NCBI GenBank assembly: GCA_003712125.1
Contig: RHLF01000004.1
Location: forward strand, 6,332 to 70,331
Direction of reading: 5' to 3'
Origin: Allomuricauda sp.
Lineage (GTDB): Bacteria; Bacteroidota; Bacteroidia; Flavobacteriales; Flavobacteriaceae
DNA length: 64,000 nt
A model generated the notes under the pieces. The model saw only the letters and a list, made by a program, of their open reading frames with translations, was not told the DNA's origin and did not search any database. Positions 10,402-64,000 of the stretch are shown piece by piece. The translations under genes and the position numbers were made by a program. Numbering within the stretch: position 1 is the stretch's first letter; every line of letters begins with the position of its first letter.

Positions 10402-11344
10402 AACTGTCTGGATCTAGATGGTCAGGTACGCCATCATTATCTGAATCCCTAAATGAACCGTCTTCATTAATTTCATCGATGGTTAAGATGCCATCACCAT
10501 CATCGTCGGGATCTTGGAAATTTGCAAATTGCGGAAAATTGGCATTCGCTTCTTCTTCCGTATCGGTATTGTCATCAAACAAATACCCATTGTTATTTAG
10601 ATCTTCGAGAATCGATGGAATTCCATCATTGTCATTGTCCGTGTTTTGTATCACATTGCCTACTTCGACCGTAAAAATCAAATTGGAGTAACTCGGGATG
10701 TTTCCTGCAGGTCCACTACCCAGAAAATAACCCAATCCTGAAGGCATGATAACCATACCAATGCCACTATTGGAATAACTGGAGGTACCATCACTATTCA
10801 CCGTGAGACCTGCCGGGGTTCCTGACGCGAATTTTGTAATTCCATTCGAATAGCCTCGTAAAAAGAACGGTAGTTCTTGCCAAACGAAACTTGGCGTTGC
10901 ATCAAATTTGGTGCCGTCGAGCAAGCTTCCTTCATAGCGTAAAAGGGTTGAATCTGCTATTGTTGGGCGAACCCCTTCGCCTTCGCGCGCCAAGAGGTAA
11001 TAATAGGTGTGGACAATATCATTTTCTTCCTCGCTCAAACCAAGCTGGGATGAGGAAACATTGACAACATCAGAACTAACTTGGTCTATCAGGGGAGTTT
11101 TATCCGCATTGTCACCAGCAATGGTATCGATTCGAATTTTGAAGTCAAAGTCTGGATCAATAGGCTCTTGAAAATCCTCATAATTGTAAAAATGGGTTTC
11201 CAAAAACTCCCTGATCTCTGAATCGTTTTCCGGAGCAACATCCCCTAGTAAACGGGGAGGAACTATTTCAATAGCTGGACCATCGTCATCGCCGCATGCC
11301 ACCAACATGAGCATTACAGCACCCAACACTAACATCCTTTTCAT
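10400..11344 (-). CDS. FKBP-type peptidyl-prolyl isomerase lipoprotein with acidic Ca-binding-like C-terminal repeats
   Basis: Lipobox LVAC-GDDD, FKBP elements YEGSLLDGTKFD, MPSGLGY and IPSYSNLIFTV, and DxDxDG repeats. Start placed at MKRML (11344), not 11584. Confidence 0.8.
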   Translation of the reverse strand: MKRMLVLGAVMLMLVACGDDDGPAIEIVPPRLLGDVAPENDSEIREFLETHFYNYEDFQEPIDPDFDFKIRIDTIAGDNADKTPLIDQVSSDVVNVSSSQLGLSEEENDIVHTYYYLLAREGEGVRPTIADSTLLRYEGSLLDGTKFDATPSFVWQELPFFLRGYSNGITKFASGTPAGLTVNSDGTSSYSNSGIGMVIMPSGLGYFLGSGPAGNIPSYSNLIFTVEVGNVIQNTDNDNDGIPSILEDLNNNGYLFDDNTDTEEEANANFPQFANFQDPDDDGDGILTIDEINEDGSFRDSDNDGVPDHLDPDS

Positions 11345-11425
11345 GCAACTTGAATTAATCAATTGGCGCGCAAGATACAATTTTCCACTATTTTTGCGTA
11401 TCGCCTTAACAAAGATTTGCAGGTT

Positions 11426-11794
11426 ATGCGAGTGGATAAATATTTGTGGTGCGTACGTTACTACAAAACTAGAAATATGGCTACCACAGCCTGTAAAAAG
11501 GGACAGGTAAAAGTAAATGACGCCCCTGTGAAACCGTCGTGTGAAGTTTTTCCGATGGATCAAATTGTGCTTAGAAAAAATCAAATTGATTACCGCCTAA
11601 CTGTGTTGGACTTACCAGAAAGCAGGGTCGGGGCAAAACTTTTGGAGATTTATCGAAAAGACACTACCCCAAAGGATGCCTTTCAGCACAACGAACTTCT
11701 AAAATTTGCGAAAGAACATTATCGGAAAAAAGGTGCAGGAAGGCCGACTAAAAAAGACCGTCGAGATATTGATGACTATCTTGACAACGATTAA
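11426..11794 (+). CDS. hslR: Ribosome-associated heat shock protein Hsp15 (S4 domain)
   Basis: MRVDKYLWCVRYYKTR and GRPTKKDRR. Confidence 0.9.
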   Translation: MRVDKYLWCVRYYKTRNMATTACKKGQVKVNDAPVKPSCEVFPMDQIVLRKNQIDYRLTVLDLPESRVGAKLLEIYRKDTTPKDAFQHNELLKFAKEHYRKKGAGRPTKKDRRDIDDYLDND

Positions 11795-16944: not shown

Positions 16945-17511
16945 TTACGGATTTAATAGTAACTCATCCAGTAAATCTCGGGTCTTGCCCGAATTCCAGT
17001 CTGAAATTCCATCCATTTTAGCTACCACCTCTCCATTTTTGCCAATAACATAAGAAGAAGGTGGTTCCAAAACTTCCAATGGCGACTTATCACCAATAAT
17101 CAAATAGGTAATCGGAGCTGTTATTTCGTGACGAGCAACAAATTCTTCTACAGGTGGTCTTTCCTCGTTTGTTATCAAATAGAAATCGACCTTGCCCTTA
17201 TAATCACGATACAATTTTTCAATACTGGTGATTTCAGCTTCACAAGCCGGTAATTTCCAACTGGCCCAAAAAACAACAATGGCCACTCGCCCTTTGGACT
17301 GTTCAAAACTGAAAAAATCCCAATTTGCATCCTTTAGGCGCCAGTCATAGTCAGGCAGTAGTTCCCGTTCGGCTTTGGCGATTGTTTTAGGAGCCTGTGA
17401 AAATATTCTGTTTAAGAGTAACTTACCTTGATACCCTAAAGGGGTAACAAAAAACGAGAGCACAAACAGAATCAATAAAAGGTTGAGAAAGGTTTTTTTG
17501 CTAAACTTCAT
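16945..17511 (-). CDS. Membrane-anchored TlpA/thioredoxin-fold protein with a degenerate CxxC
   Basis: N-terminal TM segment, FWASWKLPACEAE and a P-x-S-Y-V-I-G-K-N-G element. Confidence 0.8.
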   Translation of the reverse strand: MKFSKKTFLNLLLILFVLSFFVTPLGYQGKLLLNRIFSQAPKTIAKAERELLPDYDWRLKDANWDFFSFEQSKGRVAIVVFWASWKLPACEAEITSIEKLYRDYKGKVDFYLITNEERPPVEEFVARHEITAPITYLIIGDKSPLEVLEPPSSYVIGKNGEVVAKMDGISDWNSGKTRDLLDELLLNP

Positions 17512-26383: not shown

Positions 26384-26935
26384 ATGGACGATTCCCAAAT
26401 AGTACATCGCGTTTTGCAAAAAGACCCCACCGCACTCTATTTGCTTTATGACAAATATTCCGGGGCGTTGTTGGGTGTAATCTTAAGGATGTGCCGAAAT
26501 CGATTTCAAGCAGAGGACCTACTACAAGAAACCTTTGTCAAGATTTGGGAGAATATTGGAAGTTATGACAGTACCAAAGGCAGGTTTTATACTTGGGCCT
26601 ATCGAATTGCGAAAAATACCACGTTAAATGCGTTACGAAAACCAGACTTGCTCATCCAAACCGATGAATTAAGTGTACATAATAATAAAGCGCAATCAGA
26701 ACCGGAACAAGATTTTGCCGAATTGAACGGGGCCTTGCAAAAATTGGAGCCCCATCACCAAGAGGCAATTTCGTTGGTATACTTTAGGGGTTACACCCAT
26801 AGGGAAGCCTATAAGGAAATGGGTGTTCCATTAGGAACATTCAAATCATATGTAAGGCAGGCATTGAGTCTCCTTCGAGAAAATTACAGCGAACAACTGG
26901 TCATACTTTGGTTTACCATAGAACTATTGGCGTGA
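26384..26935 (+). CDS. ECF sigma factor (SigK-like)
   Basis: AEDLLQETFVKIW, FYTWAYRIAKN and PLGTFKSYVR. Confidence 0.9.
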   Translation: MDDSQIVHRVLQKDPTALYLLYDKYSGALLGVILRMCRNRFQAEDLLQETFVKIWENIGSYDSTKGRFYTWAYRIAKNTTLNALRKPDLLIQTDELSVHNNKAQSEPEQDFAELNGALQKLEPHHQEAISLVYFRGYTHREAYKEMGVPLGTFKSYVRQALSLLRENYSEQLVILWFTIELLA

Positions 26936-27687
26936 TGAAAAAGAATAAGATTTTAGAGGACGGTCTTTTAGAAAAATATTTATTGGACGAACTTTCAGAT
27001 AACGAAAGGTTGTTGGTCGAAGATGCCATACATAAAGACAGTGACCTAAGAGCTGAATTTGATGTACTCGAGGCAAATTTCGAAAAAATGGCCTTCGAAA
27101 ATGCGATAGCACCAAATGCCCACGTAAAGGGAGAACTTCAAAAAAGAATAGGATCTCCAGGACCAACAGAGCGTAATCGATGGCCTCTAATGGCAGCTGC
27201 CAGTTTGGCCTTGTTGTTTCTGTTGACCACTTTTTGGATGTTCAACAAATGGCAGGCAGCCAACGACCAACTTAACCTTATTGAATCGCAAACACTTAGT
27301 TTACAAGAGCGTTTAGGGGTGTTGGAAGAAAACTATGAGCTGACCAATAACAGGTTACAGCTCATCAATAGCCCAAATACCATTCCCCTTATTCTAAGAG
27401 GCAATGAAAAAGTGCCCAATTCACGCGCTGTGGCCTATGTCAACCATCAAAATAAATTGGTTGTGGTAAATCCTCAAGGGCTGCCCAATCTTCCTGACAA
27501 TCAAACGTATCAAATGTGGAGTGATGTGGATGGAGAAATGATTGATATGGGACTTTTGCCAAACGACAAGGAACTGGTAACCTTAAAGTATATAGATCGT
27601 GCCGAATCACTAAATATTACCATCGAACCTGCGGGGGGCAATGACCATCCCACTGTCGAACGACTAATTTCCTATGTGACTTTATGA
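26935..27687 (+). CDS. Anti-sigma factor (RskA-like)
   Basis: Y-L-L-D-E-L N-terminus, single TM, coiled coil, YQMW and LNITIEPAGG; overlaps the sigma stop. Confidence 0.85.
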   Translation: MKKNKILEDGLLEKYLLDELSDNERLLVEDAIHKDSDLRAEFDVLEANFEKMAFENAIAPNAHVKGELQKRIGSPGPTERNRWPLMAAASLALLFLLTTFWMFNKWQAANDQLNLIESQTLSLQERLGVLEENYELTNNRLQLINSPNTIPLILRGNEKVPNSRAVAYVNHQNKLVVVNPQGLPNLPDNQTYQMWSDVDGEMIDMGLLPNDKELVTLKYIDRAESLNITIEPAGGNDHPTVERLISYVTL

Positions 27688-27732
27688 ACATAATGGTTTC
27701 TTAATTAGCATACTAACTAATTCGAGAACATT

Positions 27733-28425
27733 ATGAAAAAATTTATTGCTGAGTTTATCGGCACCCTTTGGTTGGTTCTAGGGGGATGTGGTAGTGCTGT
27801 ATTAGCTGCCTCTTTCCCAGAACTCGGAATTGGATTCGTCGGCGTTTCACTGGCATTTGGTTTAACAGTAGTGACGATGGCCTATGCCATTGGCCACATA
27901 TCAGGATGCCATTTGAATCCTGCTGTCACCATTGGTCTTGCAGTTGGTGGACGCATGAACAGGAACGATGTCGTACCCTATATTATCGCACAGTTGATGG
28001 GCGCAATAGCAGGTGCGGCAATACTTTATTTGATTGCATCTGGAAAGGAAGGATTTACCGTGGGTGGATTTGCCGCCAATGGCTATGGTGAGCATTCTCC
28101 CGGAGGTTATGGTATGGTTTCGGCCTTTGTTACCGAGGTCGTCATGACGATGTTATTTTTGATCATCATTTTAGGTGCAACACACTCCAAAGCACCTAAA
28201 TATATGGCAGGATTGGCTATCGGGCTTGGGCTCACCTTAATTCACCTCATAAGCATTCCGGTCACGAATACCTCGGTAAACCCAGCACGAAGCACGAGTC
28301 AAGCTCTTTTTGCTGATGGAACGTGGGCTATTCCGCAATTATGGTTGTTCTGGGTGGCCCCAATATTGGGTGCCGTTATTGGAGGAGTACTTTATAAATA
28401 TCTTTCACCTGAGAAAGAGAACTAA
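27733..28425 (+). CDS. aqpZ: Aquaporin Z
   Basis: [27 protein letters not shown] and WLFWVAP. Confidence 0.95.
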
Positions 28426-40133: not shown

Positions 40134-41606
40134 ATGTCGGCCACACAGATTCTTTTATTGATAGGCATCTATTTTTTGGTGCTTTTGTTGATTTCATATT
40201 TTACGGGACGAAACGATTCGAACGCAGACTTCTTTAAGGCCGGAAAACAATCGCCATGGTATCTTGTGGCCTTCGGAATGGTGGGAGCATCCCTTTCAGG
40301 AGTAACTTTTATTTCGGTTCCAGGTTGGGTTGAGGCATCCCAATTTAGCTATATGCAGGTCGTCATGGGGTATCTGTTCGGATACCTTGTGGTAGCATTT
40401 TTGTTGCTCCCCATTTATTACCGAATGAACCTAACTTCGATTTATGAATATCTCAGAGAACGTTTCGGACCAACAAGCCATAAGACGGGTGCGTTTTTCT
40501 TTTTTGTGTCACGTGTTCTTGGTGCAGCCTTTCGCTTGTTTTTGGTTGCCATTGTTCTCCAACAATTCGTCTTTGATGACTTCGGAATACCCTTTGAAAT
40601 AACAGTGGTTATTTCTATTCTTTTAATTTGGATTTATACCAACCGTGGGGGAATCAAAACTATCGTTTGGACTGACACCTTGCAGACCACCTTTATGATA
40701 TTGGCGGTCATTCTCTCGATCATTTTTATTAATCGTGAATTGAATTGGAGCTTTGGTGAATTTATCGCTTCGGAAGAATTAAAGGCGTACAACACTTTTT
40801 TGTATACCGAAGACTTTTTAGCGCGCAATCATTTCATAAAGTCTTTTGTGGGAGGCATGTTCATTACCATATGCATGACCGGATTAGATCAAGATATGAT
40901 GCAAAAAAACCTAACCTGTCGCAATTTAAAGGACGCCCAAAAAAATATGGTTTCTTTTAGTTTGGTTCTCGTACTTGTTACTTTTCTATTCATGCTCCTC
41001 GGAGCCTTGTTGTTTATTTATGCCAATAAAAATGGCATAGGCATCCCACTTATGGACGGTGCACCAAAAACCGATTTGCTTTTTCCCGAGATAGCCCTTA
41101 ACAGTGGGTTGGGCATAACCCTTAGCATTACCTTTATGCTAGGGCTAATCGCTGCTGCATATAGTAGCGCTGATAGTGCCCTGACCTCATTGACAACTTC
41201 CTTTTGTGTTGACTTCTTAGACGTGGAAAAGAAGCCTGAGCCAAAACAAAAGCGCATTCGAAAGCAAACGCATATTTATATGAGCATCCTTTTAATTGTG
41301 GTTATCATCGCTTTTAAATATATTCTAAGTAGAAATGTAATTGATAGCCTTTTAATTGTTGCCGGCTATACCTATGGACCTTTATTGGGATTGTTCGCTT
41401 TTGGTATTTTCACAAAGCACCAAATCAAGGATAAGTATGTTTGGATCGTGGGCATATTATCGGTTGTAAGCATTGCCATTATTGCCAATATTGACTCGAA
41501 GTACTTGGGCGGTTATGTCATGGGATATGAACTTCTGCCCTTAAACGGTCTGCTTACTTTTTTGGGCCTATGGTTGATAAAAAAGAAACCTAGTACTGAC
41601 CTGTAG
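40134..41606 (+). CDS. Sodium:solute symporter (SSS family)
   Basis: [33 protein letters not shown] and AAYSSADS; about 13 TMs. Confidence 0.92.
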
Positions 41607-41949
41607 CCAGCAGTACCAAGGTACAGGCCTCCTCTGCTTGGATGCCATTTTCTCGCAGTAAATCACGAAACTCTTTGTTTTCGGTACCCGGATTAAAAAT
41701 TACCCGTTTGGGTTTTAAATCGATGATAGTTTGGTAATAGGCCTTTTGATTCGCAGGATTTAGGTACAATGAAATGGTATGAATGTCATGAAAATCATCA
41801 AAATTTGTTTTGACTTCGACACCTAAAATAGACCCCGGCCGTAAGCCATAAGCCATGGTCTCAATACCTTTTTCGACAAGACGCTCTACCGCCAAATGAC
41901 TATAGCGATTAGCCTTTAAGGAAGCTCCCAGTACCAAGGTACTCCGCAT
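41590..41949 (-). CDS. CoA-binding protein (YccU-like)
   Basis: [18 protein letters not shown] and ACTLVLL. Confidence 0.9.
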
Positions 41950-41984
41950 TTGTGTTAATTAATGTGTTAAACCTTAACAAAGAT

Positions 41985-42010
41985 TGTAACTATTTGCCAT
42001 ATTTGCCGTC
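41985..42010 (+). promoter_or_regulatory. ECF-sigma promoter 1 (TGTAAC-N16-CGTC)
   Basis: TGTAAC 41985-90, 16-nt spacer, CGTC 42007-10. The same motif occurs at the ECF sigma gene at 52.4 kb. Confidence 0.7.
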
Positions 42011-42015
42011 TTTAA

Positions 42016-42126
42016 AATGAAAATACTATCATTGGTAAGACTGTATTTTTATAGTTAATGGTTAGTGTTTAGTATAGCTTATCAATGAATAACCCTGGTA
42101 GCCTTTGCTACCAGGGTTTCTTTTTT
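42016..42126 (+). ncRNA. Candidate small RNA unit 1 (may contain a 13-codon sORF)
   Basis: Bounded by ECF promoter 1 and a perfect 12-bp hairpin AACCCTGGTAGC/GCTACCAGGGTT plus TCTTTTTT. There is no + strand gene upstream for this hairpin to terminate. TGGTTAGT core at 42059-66. Confidence 0.6.
42091..42126 (+). terminator. Intrinsic terminator of unit 1
   Basis: 12-bp stem, CTTT loop, U-tract on the + strand. Confidence 0.85.
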
Positions 42127-42180
42127 GATTTAAAATCAACAGAAGCAAATAGGGTTTAAAATGTTAAAGCACCAAATTCG

Positions 42181-42206
42181 TGTAACATCTATCCATAATT
42201 AACGTC
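42181..42206 (+). promoter_or_regulatory. ECF-sigma promoter 2 (TGTAAC-N16-CGTC)
   Basis: TGTAAC 42181-86, 16-nt spacer, CGTC 42203-06. Confidence 0.7.
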
Positions 42207-42211
42207 TTGTG

Positions 42212-42331
42212 ATTAAAAGTAAGCGACCAAAATCGCTAGAAAAGATATTGGTTTGCCTTGTGGAATATTGGTTGGTTAGTTCCTGCAAGCAAATCAATAA
42301 GCCCCTAATGTTTCATTGGGGGTTTCTTTTT
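42212..42331 (+). ncRNA. Candidate small RNA unit 2
   Basis: ECF promoter 2, 5' hairpin AGCGA-CCAAAA-TCGCT, TTGGTTGGTTAGT core (42268-80), and terminator AAGCCCCTAATG/CATTGGGGGTTT plus CTTTTT. Confidence 0.55.
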
Positions 42332-43337
42332 ACCATCTAATAATGACACTCCCCCATGTGAAACCACTTCCAAAGGCAGCCAGAACAATCAAATCGCCTT
42401 CCTTAACCTTGCCTTGCTCCCAGGCCTCAGTCAACGCAATGGGTATTGATGCAGCGGTGGTATTGCCGTATTTCATGATATTATTGAATACCTGGTCATT
42501 CGATAGCCCGAACTTTTTTTGTACGAACTGAGAAATTCTAAGATTCGCCTGGTGCGGTACAAGAAGATCGATATCGGTTGCCGTAAGGTTGTTTTTTTGC
42601 AATCCTTCCATGATAACTTCACTAAATCGAACGACGGCATTTTTGAATACAAATTGGCCGTTCATATAAGGGAAATAGGACTCATCTTCAGGGTCATTTT
42701 CTTCAATAATATCCGTTACCCATCGTTTCCCCATCCCCGGGGCAATAAGTGACAATTCTTCTGCATGTTGACCTTCAGAATGCAAATGACTTGATAAGAT
42801 TCCTTTCTTTGGGTCCTCTTCCCTGCTAATTATTGCTGCACCAGCTCCATCACCGAAGATGACAGAGACTCCCCGACCTCTTGTGGTCATATCCAATCCA
42901 TGCGAATGAAGCTCAGAACCCACAACCAAAACATTTTTGTACATGCCACTTTTAACGTACTGATCGGCCACAGAGATGCCATATACAAATCCGGAACATT
43001 GATTTCTGACATCAAGGGCACCAACGGTTTTGATACCTAAATCGCGCTGAACCAATACACCAGGGCCTGGAAAATAGTAATCAGGACTCAAGGTGGCGAA
43101 GATGATAAAATCAACCTCGTCTTTATCAATGCCTGCGCGTTCGATTGCAATTTTTGCCGCCTTTACACCCATCGAGGTCGTAGTTTCTTCACCCCTTACC
43201 ACATGCCGGCGCTCTTTAATTCCCGTTCGCTCCTGAATCCACGCATCACTGGTTTCCATGACCTTCGACAAATCGTCATTGGTCACAACATTATCCGGAA
43301 CATAATACCCCAATCCCGTTATCTTAGAATTGTACAT
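42330..43337 (-). CDS. fabH: 3-oxoacyl-ACP synthase III family protein
   Basis: Catalytic Cys in DVRNQCSGF, FGDGAGA, PHQAN and GNTTAAS. Start placed at MYNSK. Confidence 0.9.
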   Translation of the reverse strand: MYNSKITGLGYYVPDNVVTNDDLSKVMETSDAWIQERTGIKERRHVVRGEETTTSMGVKAAKIAIERAGIDKDEVDFIIFATLSPDYYFPGPGVLVQRDLGIKTVGALDVRNQCSGFVYGISVADQYVKSGMYKNVLVVGSELHSHGLDMTTRGRGVSVIFGDGAGAAIISREEDPKKGILSSHLHSEGQHAEELSLIAPGMGKRWVTDIIEENDPEDESYFPYMNGQFVFKNAVVRFSEVIMEGLQKNNLTATDIDLLVPHQANLRISQFVQKKFGLSNDQVFNNIMKYGNTTAASIPIALTEAWEQGKVKEGDLIVLAAFGSGFTWGSVIIRW

Positions 43338-43529
43338 AATCAAAACTTTTTGAATTCAGTAAAGAAACACTTTTATCTCGAAACATAACTAAAGGATATT
43401 CAATTTAATGAAAATCAGGAGAAATGATTTACCGATCAGACCCTGAATTGTTCTTCTAGTTTTACCCAAATTATAGATTCAAAATTGTATTTTTAAAAGG
43501 TTGACTTCTTTAAATTAATAGCTACTAAA

Positions 43530-46039: not shown

Positions 46040-46146
46040 ACAAATGGAAAGCGCACTTTCTGGCAAAAGTGCGCTTTCAACAACCTAACCAATAAATAAA
46101 CAAACTTGTTGTAGAATCTTCATCATAGCAATTTGATTACCACAAC
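46040..46146 (-). ncRNA. Candidate small RNA unit 3 (may contain a 12-13 codon sORF)
   Basis: Minus-strand TATATTTG (46158-51), core ATTGGTTAG (46093-85), and a perfect 13-bp hairpin 46047-59/46066-78. Confidence 0.5.
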
Positions 46147-46150
46147 TGCA

Positions 46151-46182
46151 CAAATATAATAATGTTTAATCTTTTAAAACAA
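46151..46182 (-). promoter_or_regulatory. Housekeeping promoter pointing into the gene-free 45990-46150 interval
   Basis: TTG at 46182-80, 21-nt spacer, TATATTTG at 46158-51. Confidence 0.6.
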
Positions 46183-51022: not shown

Positions 51023-51381
51023 TGATTTATCCTTGGCATCTCTATCTCATGGCAGGCATGTACGTTGTTGCAGGTGTTATGCATTTTATATATCCCAAAG
51101 CCTACAAACGCATTATGCCAAAATACCTTCCCAAACATGGCCTTCTTGTATTTTGGAGTGGTATTGCTGAAATTATTTTAGGGGTTGCCCTTTGTTATTC
51201 CCAAACCAAAAACATAGCCATATGCGGCATCATAACCATGTTGGCTGTCTTTTTGATGGTGCATTTTTATATGCTTTCTAGTGAAAAAGCTGCTGCTGGT
51301 GTTCCGAAATGGATCTTAATTTTAAGAATTCCATTACAGTTTGGCCTTATGTATTGGGCATATTGGTATTTGAAATTTTAA
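51022..51381 (+). CDS. DoxX/MauE-like small membrane protein
   Basis: AGVMHF..P..Y..IMP, SGIAEI..G and RIPLQ. Confidence 0.75.
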   Translation: MIYPWHLYLMAGMYVVAGVMHFIYPKAYKRIMPKYLPKHGLLVFWSGIAEIILGVALCYSQTKNIAICGIITMLAVFLMVHFYMLSSEKAAAGVPKWILILRIPLQFGLMYWAYWYLKF

Positions 51382-51782
51382 GCCAATCGTTTATCAAAAT
51401 ACCCTTTTAGCAGCGTGGTTTGCACCATTACCAAAAGACCCATGGTTCCAATGGTATACACGAGAATTCTAGAAAAGGGCAATTCAAATTTAGGCATGGT
51501 AAGTTCTGATATCCACTTTGATGAGAGGGTCTGGCTAAACCAATTGCTTGATGCGCTATCCAATTGAAAAGTCAAAAAGATCAATAAAACAACAAACAGA
51601 ACTCCCATAACGCCCAAAACATTTCTTGAAATAATTGGCTTATAGGCGAATTTCACCTGTTCTTCTGAAGCCTTGATCTGGTTCATCACCACATCGGTAA
51701 AATCGGCAGATGGTGCATCTAATTGAGCATCATGAAACGCGATGTCGAGTAACTCCCTTAACTCTTTGTCTGTCTTATCCAT
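51378..51782 (-). CDS. Probable membrane anti-sigma factor
   Basis: Overlaps the sigma stop; PSADFTDVVM helix, YKPII and two TM segments. Confidence 0.7.
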   Translation of the reverse strand: MDKTDKELRELLDIAFHDAQLDAPSADFTDVVMNQIKASEEQVKFAYKPIISRNVLGVMGVLFVVLLIFLTFQLDSASSNWFSQTLSSKWISELTMPKFELPFSRILVYTIGTMGLLVMVQTTLLKGYFDKRLA

Positions 51783-52353
51783 AATTTCTAAGTACTTCAG
51801 GTTCAATATGGTTTTCTAAAATTAGTGCAAATTTCTTTCGCGCCCGGTGCAATCGTACCTTTAAGGTGTTCACCGATTGTTCAAAAATCTCCTCTAACTC
51901 ATTTAAATTCTTCTCTTCAAAATAGAACAAGGTGAGCAAAGCGGCGTCTTCAGGCGGCAAATACTGCAAACAGGCCTTTACCTTTGCTGAGCGCTCCTTT
52001 TGTTCCATTTCATGCAACGCATTTTTGGTGGTATATATCTTGTTTTCCGTTACCGCATTTAGTTCTTCCTCCAGATACTTTCTTTTATACTTTTTTAGTC
52101 GATCCAAACAGGTGTTATAGGCAATTCTATAAATCCATGTAGAAAATTTAGAATCCCCTTTAAAACTTTCCAACGAACTGTAAACCTTAACGAACGTATC
52201 TTGCGCTACTTCTTCGGCTTCTTCCTGATTTTTCAACATCTGTAAGGCCAAAGAGAACACCAAATTTTTATACGCATCTACCACTTCGGAAAACGCCGCA
52301 GTTTCTCCATTCAAAATGCGATTGATCAGTGTTGTTTCTGTGTTGGTTGCCAT
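51775..52353 (-). CDS. ECF sigma factor (RpoE/SigW-like)
   Basis: AEEVAQDTFVK, FKGDSKFSTWIYRIAYN and KVRLHRARKK. Start placed at MATNT because the track start (52377) lies inside the promoter. Confidence 0.92.
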   Translation of the reverse strand: MATNTETTLINRILNGETAAFSEVVDAYKNLVFSLALQMLKNQEEAEEVAQDTFVKVYSSLESFKGDSKFSTWIYRIAYNTCLDRLKKYKRKYLEEELNAVTENKIYTTKNALHEMEQKERSAKVKACLQYLPPEDAALLTLFYFEEKNLNELEEIFEQSVNTLKVRLHRARKKFALILENHIEPEVLRNYG

Positions 52354-52364
52354 TTGATTAATAA

Positions 52365-52391
52365 GACGATAAATCATGATCTTAGGTTACA
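52365..52391 (-). promoter_or_regulatory. ECF autoregulatory promoter (TGTAAC-N17-CGTC)
   Basis: Minus strand TGTAAC 52391-86, 17-nt spacer, CGTC 52368-65, 12 nt before the sigma ATG. Confidence 0.75.
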
Positions 52392-52415: not shown

Positions 52416-52442
52416 TGTAACCTGGATTCAAAAATGGTCGTC
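52416..52442 (+). promoter_or_regulatory. ECF promoter of the divergent DUF6249-like gene (TGTAAC-N17-CGTC)
   Basis: TGTAAC 52416-21, 17-nt spacer, CGTC 52439-42. Confidence 0.75.
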
Positions 52443-52485: not shown

Positions 52486-52836
52486 ATGGGATCAGAAGTA
52501 ATTATTATACCAATCATTTTTGGGGTACTTTTCGCCATCGCCTACCTATACTTTTCAACGCGTAACAAGGAAAGGTTGGCTTTAATCGAAAAAGGTGCCG
52601 ATGCCAGTATTTTTGTTAAGGGAAGACGCAGGGCCGCACCAATCTGGAAAATTTTATTGTTAAATCTAGCCCTCTTGCTAGCAGCTACCGGTATCGCAAT
52701 TTTCGTGGGCTCATTCCTGACTACTATGGGCGTCGATGAAGATGTGGCCTACCCCGGCACTATTTTCTTACTGGCAGGTGTCGGACTATTTGTCGGCTAC
52801 ATCATGACCAAAAGGTTGGACAAAGAGGAAGACTAA
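52486..52836 (+). CDS. DUF6249-like small membrane protein
   Basis: RNKERLALIEKGAD after TM1, followed by two further TMs. Confidence 0.8.
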   Translation: MGSEVIIIPIIFGVLFAIAYLYFSTRNKERLALIEKGADASIFVKGRRRAAPIWKILLLNLALLLAATGIAIFVGSFLTTMGVDEDVAYPGTIFLLAGVGLFVGYIMTKRLDKEED

Positions 52837-63747: not shown

Positions 63748-63788
63748 CACCACCTATTTTTCTATATTTGGGAGCTAGCTGATCAACC

Positions 63789-64000
63789 ATGAACAATTTA
63801 CCTCTTACCGACGATACCGTAATTTTCGGACTACTTGCCCTATGCTTAGGGTTTGTTTTTTACACTTCTTCAATCAAAACTGGCTTTTGGAAAAAGTTTT
63901 ATGCCTTTATACCCACAGTTTTGATGTGCTACCTGCTTCCGGCAATACTGGCAAGCAGTGGCCTGGTTTCTGAGAAGGATTCGAACCTATATTTCATTGC
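63789..64000 (+). CDS. DUF819-family membrane protein, N-terminus (truncated by the window edge)
   Basis: Hand translation MNNLPLTDDTVIFGLLALCLGFVFYTSS...FWKKFYAFIPTVLMCYLLPAIL; open to the window end. Confidence 0.7.
   Translation, partial: MNNLPLTDDTVIFGLLALCLGFVFYTSSIKTGFWKKFYAFIPTVLMCYLLPAILASSGLVSEKDSNLYFI

Follow-up and report, generated by a model that had tools for sequence, protein, structure and literature searches.

What, if anything, is encoded in the 380-bp gap that separates fabH from its neighbour in an Allomuricauda species (Flavobacteriaceae), what drives its expression, and on what might it act? The gap (41950-42329) belongs to a stretch of 64,000 nucleotides of contig RHLF01000004.1, which we call the window and from whose first letter all of its positions are counted, and it lies between a CoA_binding_2 gene (41590-41949, - strand) and fabH itself (42330-43343, - strand). 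An earlier note on this DNA had proposed that two units, each made of a promoter, a small RNA and a terminator, are packed into the gap, and both are indeed found on its + strand, at 41985-42331. We refer to their products as RNA 1 and RNA 2. The explanation that we consider best overall, and likely correct, is that these are two small RNAs (sRNAs) with promoters for a sigma factor of the extracytoplasmic function (ECF) type, that they belong to a small sigma regulon and that they would act by pairing through their loops. In other words, the comparisons and predictions presented here, all of them made from sequence, point to an undescribed RNA arm in the tiny regulon of a nearby stress sigma factor.

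Two conserved structured RNAs

RNA 1 (42018..42126, +; approximately 109 nucleotides, nt) comprises a variable 5' leader, a long hairpin with an outer stem formed by 42029-42039 and 42078-42088 and a near-invariant loop region of 28 nt (UUUAUAGUUAAUGGUUAGUGUUUAGUAU, 42048-42075), and a GC-rich, terminator-like hairpin of 12 bp (42091-42118) with a U-tract up to 42126. RNA 2 (42214..42331, +; approximately 118 nt) begins with a small 5' hairpin (42222-42237), continues with a long hairpin (42247-42300) that carries the invariant UUGGUUGGU in its apical loop (42268-42276), and ends with a second terminator-like hairpin (42299-42325), whose U-tract runs to 42331. These U-tracts stand behind the two terminator hairpins on the + strand only. 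The predicted folds reach -40 kcal/mol for RNA 1 (z-score of -6.7 relative to shuffled sequences) and -42.3 kcal/mol for RNA 2 (z-score of -5.5), and in both of them UGGUUAG lies in the apical part of a long hairpin, behind which the terminator follows.

Covariance models across the Flavobacteriaceae, which the earlier note had suggested as a check, find both RNAs conserved across genera. Namely, a scan with the FabH protein, using one genome per species, gave 80 loci from species other than that of the window, with FabH identities of 84-90%, in Flagellimonas/Muricauda, Croceitalea, Maribacter, Zobellia, Cellulophaga, Arenibacter, Muriicola, Eudoraea, Robiginitalea, Zeaxanthinibacter, Spongiimicrobium and others. 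The RNA 1 core AAUGGUUAGUGUUUAGU, with at most two mismatches, is present in exactly one copy in 68 of these 80 syntenic loci, which represent at least 10 genera, and always on the strand opposite to fabH. In the resulting alignment, an unbroken run of approximately 28 loop positions shows no variation or a conservation of at least 90%, and the flanking stem is variable, with double, compensatory changes in 7 of the 8 outer-stem pairs and in 4 of the 6 terminator pairs (at one of these pairs, for instance, 41 sequences have AU and 23 have GC). What is more, 94.5% of the cells in the alignment are paired, as compared with 26-43% when the partners are slid by 1-3 columns, and none of 500 column shuffles matches the observed covariation values. 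Since many of the pairs are G-U, the structure fits the + strand only. Within the outer stem two inner helices are possible, one of which encloses the invariant loop and shows a few compensatory changes, the other pairing with the invariant UAUAG and showing none, and in the predicted structure the two may alternate. The covariance model built for RNA 1 (R1) scores the copy in the window at 96 bits. Marine-dominated metagenome contigs hold at least approximately 40 further full-length copies, as obtained from a 17-mer scan in which about half of the loci were chance matches and which was filtered with the covariance model. Two short ENA metagenome contigs (L001 and L002) encode an identical CoA-binding protein and have the same promoter 1 as the window, and depart from it in the 15-20 nt with which the RNA 1 leader begins; the leader of such near-identical strains therefore appears free to vary.

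The RNA 2 family, defined by the invariant UUGGUUGGU, has 51 members, and in 50 of their 51 minimum-free-energy folds this sequence lies in the apical loop of a long imperfect hairpin, followed by a terminator, while the stem sequences are wholly different between genera. Thirty of the members directly follow the stop codon of a gene for an outer-membrane protein (OMP), and 18, those of the window and of 17 genomes, stand alone. The stems are too divergent for RNAalifold to be suitable on a sequence-only alignment, and we used folds of the single sequences and a model-based alignment instead. With a covariance model made from 20 of the members (R2), the family scores 45-96 bits and RNA 2 of the window 57.9 bits. 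In an alignment of both RNA types fitted with R2, all 21 of 21 pairs show double changes and 94.8% of the cells are paired, relative to 72% in shuffles and 29-46% with slid partners, figures that are to be read with the caution that an alignment fitted in this way leans towards the structure.

Could the region simply code for small proteins? The + strand list of open reading frames (ORFs) does include one of 43 amino acids with a GTG start (42209-42340), and a 13-codon ATG ORF begins at 42033. No reading frame is conserved, though: the members of both families differ by insertions and deletions in their leaders and stems, conservation peaks in the loops and affects every position there without a codon period, and in 30 genomes RNA 2 forms the 3' untranslated region (3'UTR) behind a stop codon. 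Upstream of terminator 1, the list of ORFs in the window has no + strand entry of at least 40 amino acids, in keeping with the earlier observation that this terminator has no protein gene to terminate. We consider a coding function extremely improbable.

Nearly as improbable, in our view, is a second possibility, that the hairpins are just bidirectional terminators or antisense elements serving fabH and the CoA-binding gene, without the production of a discrete small RNA. The two terminator hairpins are indeed near-palindromic, and the U-tract of terminator 2 overlaps the stop codon of fabH, so this hairpin probably also serves fabH on the opposite strand. In addition, no sigma-A promoter of the CoA-binding gene can be recognised within the gap (41950-42330, -), which makes read-through from fabH conceivable; if the gene is transcribed in this way, both small RNAs would face an antisense transcript. 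That said, terminators of this kind would leave unexplained why an ECF-type promoter is conserved on a fixed side of the hairpins, why the loops are invariant and why the upstream hairpins covary, while the G-U pairs work, and the U-tracts occur, on the + strand only. Moreover, where the OMP gene intervenes, RNA 1 and RNA 2 sit away from fabH. The terminators, the covariation of the stems and the lack of a conserved ORF together describe, for each RNA, a predicted discrete non-coding transcript that ends at an intrinsic terminator, and we are highly confident that the two genes are real as conserved structured RNAs.

Are the two RNAs copies of each other? The earlier note had spoken of a duplicated module, and a search for shared motifs does find GGGTTTCTTTTT and TGGTTAGT twice each in the gap and ATATTGGTT in both modules, in which ATTGGT and ATCAAT form the arms of a stem. 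More generally, the two types share the AUUGRU/AUCAAU stem ends, a UGGUU(A)G loop and a terminator of the form AACCC...GGGUUU. However, R1 gives RNA 2 no higher score (25.8 bits) than it gives a chance match at 17479 that consists of a gene start plus a terminator, and a simple duplication was rejected for this reason. In the opposite direction, R2 also recovers genes of the RNA 1 type at 30-42 bits, including the one in the window (42031-42121; E = 1.6e-4 in 3 Mb). The common layout together with this cross-recovery suggests that the two are probably old paralogues. The common layout and the short motifs thus stand, and the degree of similarity had been overstated: RNA 1 and RNA 2 are best described as separate families, each of them conserved, that have a layout in common, and at most as old, distant paralogues.

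Promoters and the sigma regulon

An indication of what controls the two RNAs comes from their promoters. The motif TGTAAC-N16-CGTCT has exactly two matches in the 64 kb of the window, where shuffled sequences give an expectation of 0. Promoter 1 (41985..42011, +) has its -35 element TGTAAC at 41985-41990, a 16-nt spacer and its -10 element CGTCT at 42007-42011, with a predicted start near 42017-42018; promoter 2 (42181..42207, +) has the same elements at 42181-42186 and 42203-42207, again 16 nt apart, with a predicted start near 42213-42214, and is of the TGTAACAT...CGTCTTGT flavour seen at the OMP gene promoters of Flagellimonas loci. The looser motif GTAAC-N15-17-CGTC has 4 matches, as compared with 0.39 expected, and all of them are intergenic, just as the earlier manual scan, which had found no intragenic copy, would have it. 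The two additional matches lie back to back at 52365-52390 (-) and 52417-52442 (+), both with TGTAAC and an N17 spacer, the first of them in front of an ECF sigma gene, so the claim that the same promoter recurs at a sigma gene 10 kb away holds as well.

The gene in question (51775-52353, -) has the Pfam domains Sigma70_r2 and r4_2, and its best NCBIfam matches are SigW and RpoE, all of them under the cut-off. It overlaps a gene for a membrane protein of 142 amino acids (51378-51806, -), which matches no family and is a candidate anti-sigma factor by its position only. The promoter of this operon, TGTAAC-N17-CGTCT (52365..52391, -), places the ATG (52353) behind a very short leader and is presumably autoregulatory. 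The divergent promoter, TGTAAC-N17-CGTCA (52416-52442, +), precedes the gene for a DUF6249 membrane protein (52486-52836, +). Among the relatives, 35 loci have the motif in front of the sigma orthologue, with an N17 spacer in every case, and 31 have it in front of a DUF6249 orthologue; the sigma operon is syntenic, at most 10 kb away, in 35 loci.

Upstream of RNA 1, GTAAC-N16-CGTC is exact in 47 of 69 cases and has one mismatch in 10 of 69, with the site lying beyond the extracted stretch of 110 nt in most of the remainder. What is more, the strict motif TGTAAC-N15-17-CGTC has 143 matches in 1.5 Mb of sequence, that is, in the related loci and the window combined: 45 precede RNA 1, 35 the sigma gene, 31 the DUF6249 gene, 24 the OMP gene, 4 a stand-alone RNA 2, 1 an OMP remnant plus RNA 2 and 2 RNA 1 on truncated contigs, with 1 stray match. 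In other words, 142 of the 143 matches precede five features only, namely the sigma, DUF6249 and OMP genes, RNA 1 and RNA 2. No other observation argues as strongly as this concentration in one gene set that a single, dedicated sigma factor uses the motif as a functional promoter. The presence of ECF-type promoters at both RNAs, shared with the putatively autoregulated sigma operon, is in our opinion well supported.

Whether the sigma factor encoded at 52 kb is the one that reads them deserves separate consideration, for some features of the promoters speak against it. In particular, the sigma and DUF6249 promoters always have N17 with TGTAACC, whereas those of RNA 1, the OMP gene and RNA 2 have N16 with TGTAACt or TGTAACA. 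In addition, a direct repeat, GTTAA-N5-9-GTTAA, is found 19-31 nt upstream of the -35 element at 32 of the 45 RNA 1 promoters and 16 of the 24 OMP promoters, and at none of the 35 sigma and 31 DUF6249 promoters (0.17% of background windows have it), which restricts it to the RNA 1 and OMP/RNA 2 promoters. In the window, GTTAA-N7-GTTAA stands upstream of promoter 1 (41954..41970, +), where it also falls within the 5' region of the divergent CoA-binding gene, and a degenerate GTTTAA-N3-GTTAA upstream of promoter 2 (42154..42167, +), which fails the strict pattern and is positioned as are the OMP/RNA 2 repeats of the relatives. The repeat may be a transcription-factor site. A related motif, TTTAACA/TTAAACA, also stands beside the sigma-A promoter of a third sRNA candidate in the window, described in the last section.

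The difference in spacing, together with the repeat, means that a paralogous sigma factor or a co-activator could be involved. It could then be that the promoters are used by another ECF sigma factor or need an activator at the repeats, and that the link to the sigma operon is only apparent, the more so as our view of the genome is one of 64 kb. However, the full TGTAAC and CGTC elements are common to both promoter classes, the sigma operon lies within 10 kb and is syntenic in 35 loci, the 142 matches form one coherent gene set, and the other ECF sigma gene of the window lacks the motif. The latter gene (26384-26935, +) overlaps one for an RskA-like anti-sigma factor (the pair spans 26384-27687) and is followed by aqpZ (27733-28425, +); no TGTAAC...CGTC is present upstream of it. 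We regard control by another factor as rather unlikely, and consider it probable that both RNAs depend on the sigma factor encoded at 52 kb. If so, a regulon of a SigW/RpoE-like sigma factor encoded approximately 10 kb away would include the sigma/anti-sigma operon, the DUF6249 protein, both RNAs, each with its own ECF promoter and intrinsic terminator, and, in other genera, an outer-membrane protein with an OMP_b-brl_3 domain. A role in envelope stress is suggested by this content alone, that is, by the outer-membrane beta-barrel protein and the DUF6249 membrane protein.

Origin of RNA 2

In the 30 genomes in which RNA 2 follows an OMP gene, most of them Flagellimonas and some Maribacter, Eudoraea and Spongiimicrobium, that gene encodes a protein of 817 amino acids whose domains, CarboxypepD_reg, Plug-like and OMP_b-brl_3, are those of an outer-membrane barrel resembling TonB-dependent receptors, and is itself preceded by TGTAACAT-N-CGTCTTGT. 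In the window, the OMP coding sequence is absent from the locus and the promoter directly adjoins RNA 2; the genomes with a stand-alone RNA 2 include Croceitalea, many Maribacter and Robiginitalea. Consequently, RNA 2 of the window, having its own promoter and no upstream coding sequence, is not a 3'UTR-derived sRNA there, and its 30 orthologous elements elsewhere are. We propose that RNA 2 originated as a 3'UTR element of the OMP gene and turned into a gene of its own wherever that coding sequence disappeared, the window being one such case.

Two Flagellimonas loci, L034 (approximately 11030-11290, -) and L076 (approximately 11035-11450, -), which represent two species, have lost the OMP coding sequence and kept RNA 2, and in L034 RNA 2 is still accompanied by the ECF promoter and by an OMP leader in decay. 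They look like recent deletion intermediates in the loss of the coding sequence. A loop of the RNA 1 type, too, is found outside its usual setting, namely in a 3'UTR hairpin directly after an OMP-like gene in the metagenome contigs L086 (1117-1208, -) and L134 (5371-5463, -), and in a hairpin without a terminator approximately 25 nt upstream of the start codon of a permease gene in L127 (376-467, +). Its presence in OMP-like 3'UTR hairpins suggests that the locus exchanges or loses its coding part and keeps the promoter, the hairpin and the terminator.

Candidate targets and mode of action

How might the two RNAs act? The conserved parts of both are G/U-rich and exposed in loops (...GUUAAUGGUUAGUGUUUAG... 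in RNA 1 and UUGGUUGGU in RNA 2), and an obvious proposal is that they pair with C/A-rich leaders. Most likely, then, the loops would act by an Hfq-independent pairing with C/A-rich 5' regions of mRNAs. The best candidate sites for RNA 2 would be (AUCA)n in the 5'UTR of the OMP mRNA and ACCAAC(C) in the first codons of the sigma mRNA, and pairing there would provide feedback on the response. Namely, AYCAAYCA is found in 20 of 24 OMP 5'UTRs, as compared with 3.8% of 978 ORF upstream regions, in the form of an (AUCA)2-5 tract just upstream of the A-rich start region. The 9-mer wobble complement of UUGGUUGGU occurs in the start regions of 19 of 24 OMP genes and, at a weaker enrichment, of 10 of 31 DUF6249 and 13 of 35 sigma genes, relative to a background of 6-11%, and 20 of 35 sigma genes have exact 6-mers of ACCAACCAA within their first 48 nt, relative to a background of 6%; in the window, the start region of the sigma gene reads AUGGCAACCAACAC.

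Several results tell against this mechanism. The energies of the loop duplexes with the OMP and DUF6249 leaders are no better than those with mononucleotide shuffles of these A/C/U-rich leaders, the ACCAAC tract of the sigma genes could stem from T-N or N/D-Q-P codons, and the loci are phylogenetically related, so that the counts of target sites are not independent. For RNA 1, no enriched complement was found, and its 28-nt invariant loop exceeds typical seeds and may point to a protein partner. Finally, the OMP gene is absent at the locus in the window, which means that the main candidate target may be absent or located elsewhere. Taking all this together, we consider feedback by base pairing plausible, and somewhat doubtful on balance.

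A scan of the whole window for duplexes gave no convincing target, and the best non-self matches are mostly intragenic. The best of those at a gene start, a plausible site (predicted at -21 kcal/mol, with the RNA 2 loop), concerns a gene that starts at 63789 (+) and runs off the window; it has a sigma-A -7 box at 63763-63770 and the leader GCUGAUCAACC directly before its AUG (63763-63800). The earlier note had also expected pairing with A/C-rich translation-initiation regions and had named aqpZ as an example. The sequence behind this example, ACTAACTAA at 27712-27720, is real, but it offers just 6-7 bp and is not among the best predicted duplexes, its other copy being antisense inside a gene. 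Better-supported candidate sites lie inside the regulon.

An alternative that keeps both RNAs as real and ECF-driven is that they mainly bind or titrate a protein, be it an RNA-binding protein of the RRM-1 or KH type or a transcription factor. The loop of RNA 1, invariant over approximately 28 nt in at least 10 genera and thus longer than most seeds, reads as three heptads, GUUAAUG/GUUAGUG/UUUAGUA, and this repeat and its invariance fit a protein partner at least as well as an mRNA. The same loop sits on unrelated hairpins, after an OMP-like stop codon in L086 and L134 and before a permease gene in L127, no enriched mRNA complement of it was found, and sRNA families of Bacteroides are known to bind the protein RbpB (PMC11697453). 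Against this, the invariant part of RNA 2 is 9 nt only, with a complement that is clearly enriched in the OMP leader. Multi-target seeds such as GcvB R1 are likewise long and invariant. Overall, we judge a mainly protein-binding role to be improbable, if one worth keeping in mind, and loop pairing within the sigma regulon remains the reading that we prefer.

Relation to known systems

A transcriptome paper on F. psychrophilum describes an ECF motif, SM6, and the sRNAs Rfp11, Rfp13, Rfp15 and Rfp18 without a link between them, and these match neither RNA 1 nor RNA 2. When the whole window is searched with Rfam 15 at the gathering thresholds, only two tRNAs pass, and in 41900-42400 the best matches below threshold, at E <=10, are terminator-driven and reach at most 29 bits, relative to thresholds of 39-128 bits. 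MicC is a chance match of this sub-threshold kind (26.9 vs 90 bits). The two RNAs thus fall into no Rfam 15 family, including MicA, RybB, MicC, GibS/FopS and Flavo-1, and the literature search found no description of either of them or of an ECF-dependent sRNA in Bacteroidota. The RNAs had been put forward earlier as undescribed, and the outcome of both searches agrees with this.

In Proteobacteria, sigmaE-dependent sRNAs include MicA, RybB, MicL and VrrA/MicV, and FoxI is their counterpart in Fusobacterium. Like these, RNA 1 and RNA 2 combine a promoter of the ECF/sigmaE type with an intrinsic terminator, their putative regulon holds the sigma operon itself along with envelope proteins, and their candidate targets, as predicted here, are OMP and regulon mRNAs, in a feedback arrangement. 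Unlike these, they show no sequence or Rfam relation, occur in a phylum without Hfq, belong to what appears to be a tiny regulon, and carry their conserved sequence in an apical loop and not at the 5' end. Similarly, some envelope-stress sRNAs are derived from 3'UTRs, such as CpxQ from cpxP and MicL from cutC, and the 30 RNA 2 hairpins with terminators that directly follow the stop codon of a gene driven, by prediction, by a stress sigma factor resemble them; this form would be released from the OMP mRNA or act within it. The differences are that the window and 17 genomes have a stand-alone RNA 2, with the promoter moved beside it, and that a possible target of RNA 2 is the 5'UTR of its own parent mRNA. 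Yet another parallel is GcvB R1, a G/U-rich seed that acts on C/A-rich elements, much as the G/U-rich conserved regions studied here are complementary to C/A-rich unstructured leaders such as (AUCA)n; there is, however, no homology, the regulon is different, Hfq is lacking, and the seed lies in a hairpin loop.

To our knowledge, Bacteroidota have neither Hfq nor ProQ, and the few small RNAs known in any detail from this phylum come almost entirely from gut Bacteroides. In Bacteroides thetaiotaomicron, the GibS/FopS sRNA families have paralogous members and act without Hfq; FopS, a family deposited in Rfam, represses the mRNAs of outer-membrane SusC-like transporters at the start codon, its genes are transcribed from canonical sigma-A promoters, and in the RNA a single-stranded 5' seed runs straight into the terminator, while GibS has a separate non-canonical promoter motif, PM2 (PMC11697453). 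RNA 1 and RNA 2 are comparable as Bacteroidota sRNA families with paralogous members in the absence of Hfq, and different in their ECF promoters, their loop-borne motifs and their lack of an Rfam match. The sigma-A -7 box TAnnTTTG is absent from both strands of the gap and the conserved motif lies in a hairpin loop, and membership in GibS/FopS was rejected. In dCas12f-sigmaE systems, a guide RNA is encoded beside the dCas12f and sigmaE genes and initiation is independent of a promoter (PMC13472631). This candidate was dismissed too, given that no Cas12f-like gene lies beside the sigma operon and that canonical -35 and -10 elements are present.

The two RNA families are abundant in marine Flavobacteriaceae, their loops are unusually invariant, and the regulon, as predicted, is small enough for a full dissection. 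Marine Flavobacteriaceae are key degraders of algal polysaccharides. The proposed circuit bears on a possible independent origin, in Bacteroidota, of the logic by which a sigma factor is combined with a repressor arm of small RNAs, on the way in which 3'UTR elements become stand-alone RNA genes, and on what replaces Hfq in this phylum.

A third small-RNA candidate

A third conserved sRNA candidate lies 4 kb from the pair, at 46040-46146 (-). It has a canonical Bacteroidota sigma-A promoter (TATATTTG, -7 box 46151-46158), which is flanked by TTTAACA/TTAAACA motifs related to the GTTAA repeat, and it shares UUGGUUAG with both of the RNAs that have ECF promoters. The GTTAA and TTTAACA/TTAAACA motifs may represent a shared transcription-factor site.

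One can also envisage a wider ECF circuit, closed in itself, whose sigma factor drives two RNAs with loop seeds, which in turn feed back on the start region of the sigma mRNA and on the (AUCA)n leader of the OMP mRNA. In that case, the OMP leader and RNA 2 being on one transcript in many species, its 5'UTR and 3'UTR could pair in cis; RNA 2 would repeatedly switch between a 3'UTR element and a stand-alone gene; RNA 1, RNA 2 and the third RNA, which has UUGGUUAGG, would form a 'UUGGUU' seed family, perhaps co-regulated by a factor that binds GTTAA/TTTAACA; and the whole would amount to an Hfq-independent network of envelope control with no described counterpart in Bacteroidota. With all these parts included, the circuit is speculative, and we hold it to be unlikely as a whole.

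As for the third RNA itself, it has no match in Rfam and is found in 54 of 81 sources, with a 5' hairpin whose stem covaries between genera, the single-stranded, G/U-rich UUUGUUUAUUUAUUGGUUAGGUUGUUG and a terminator.

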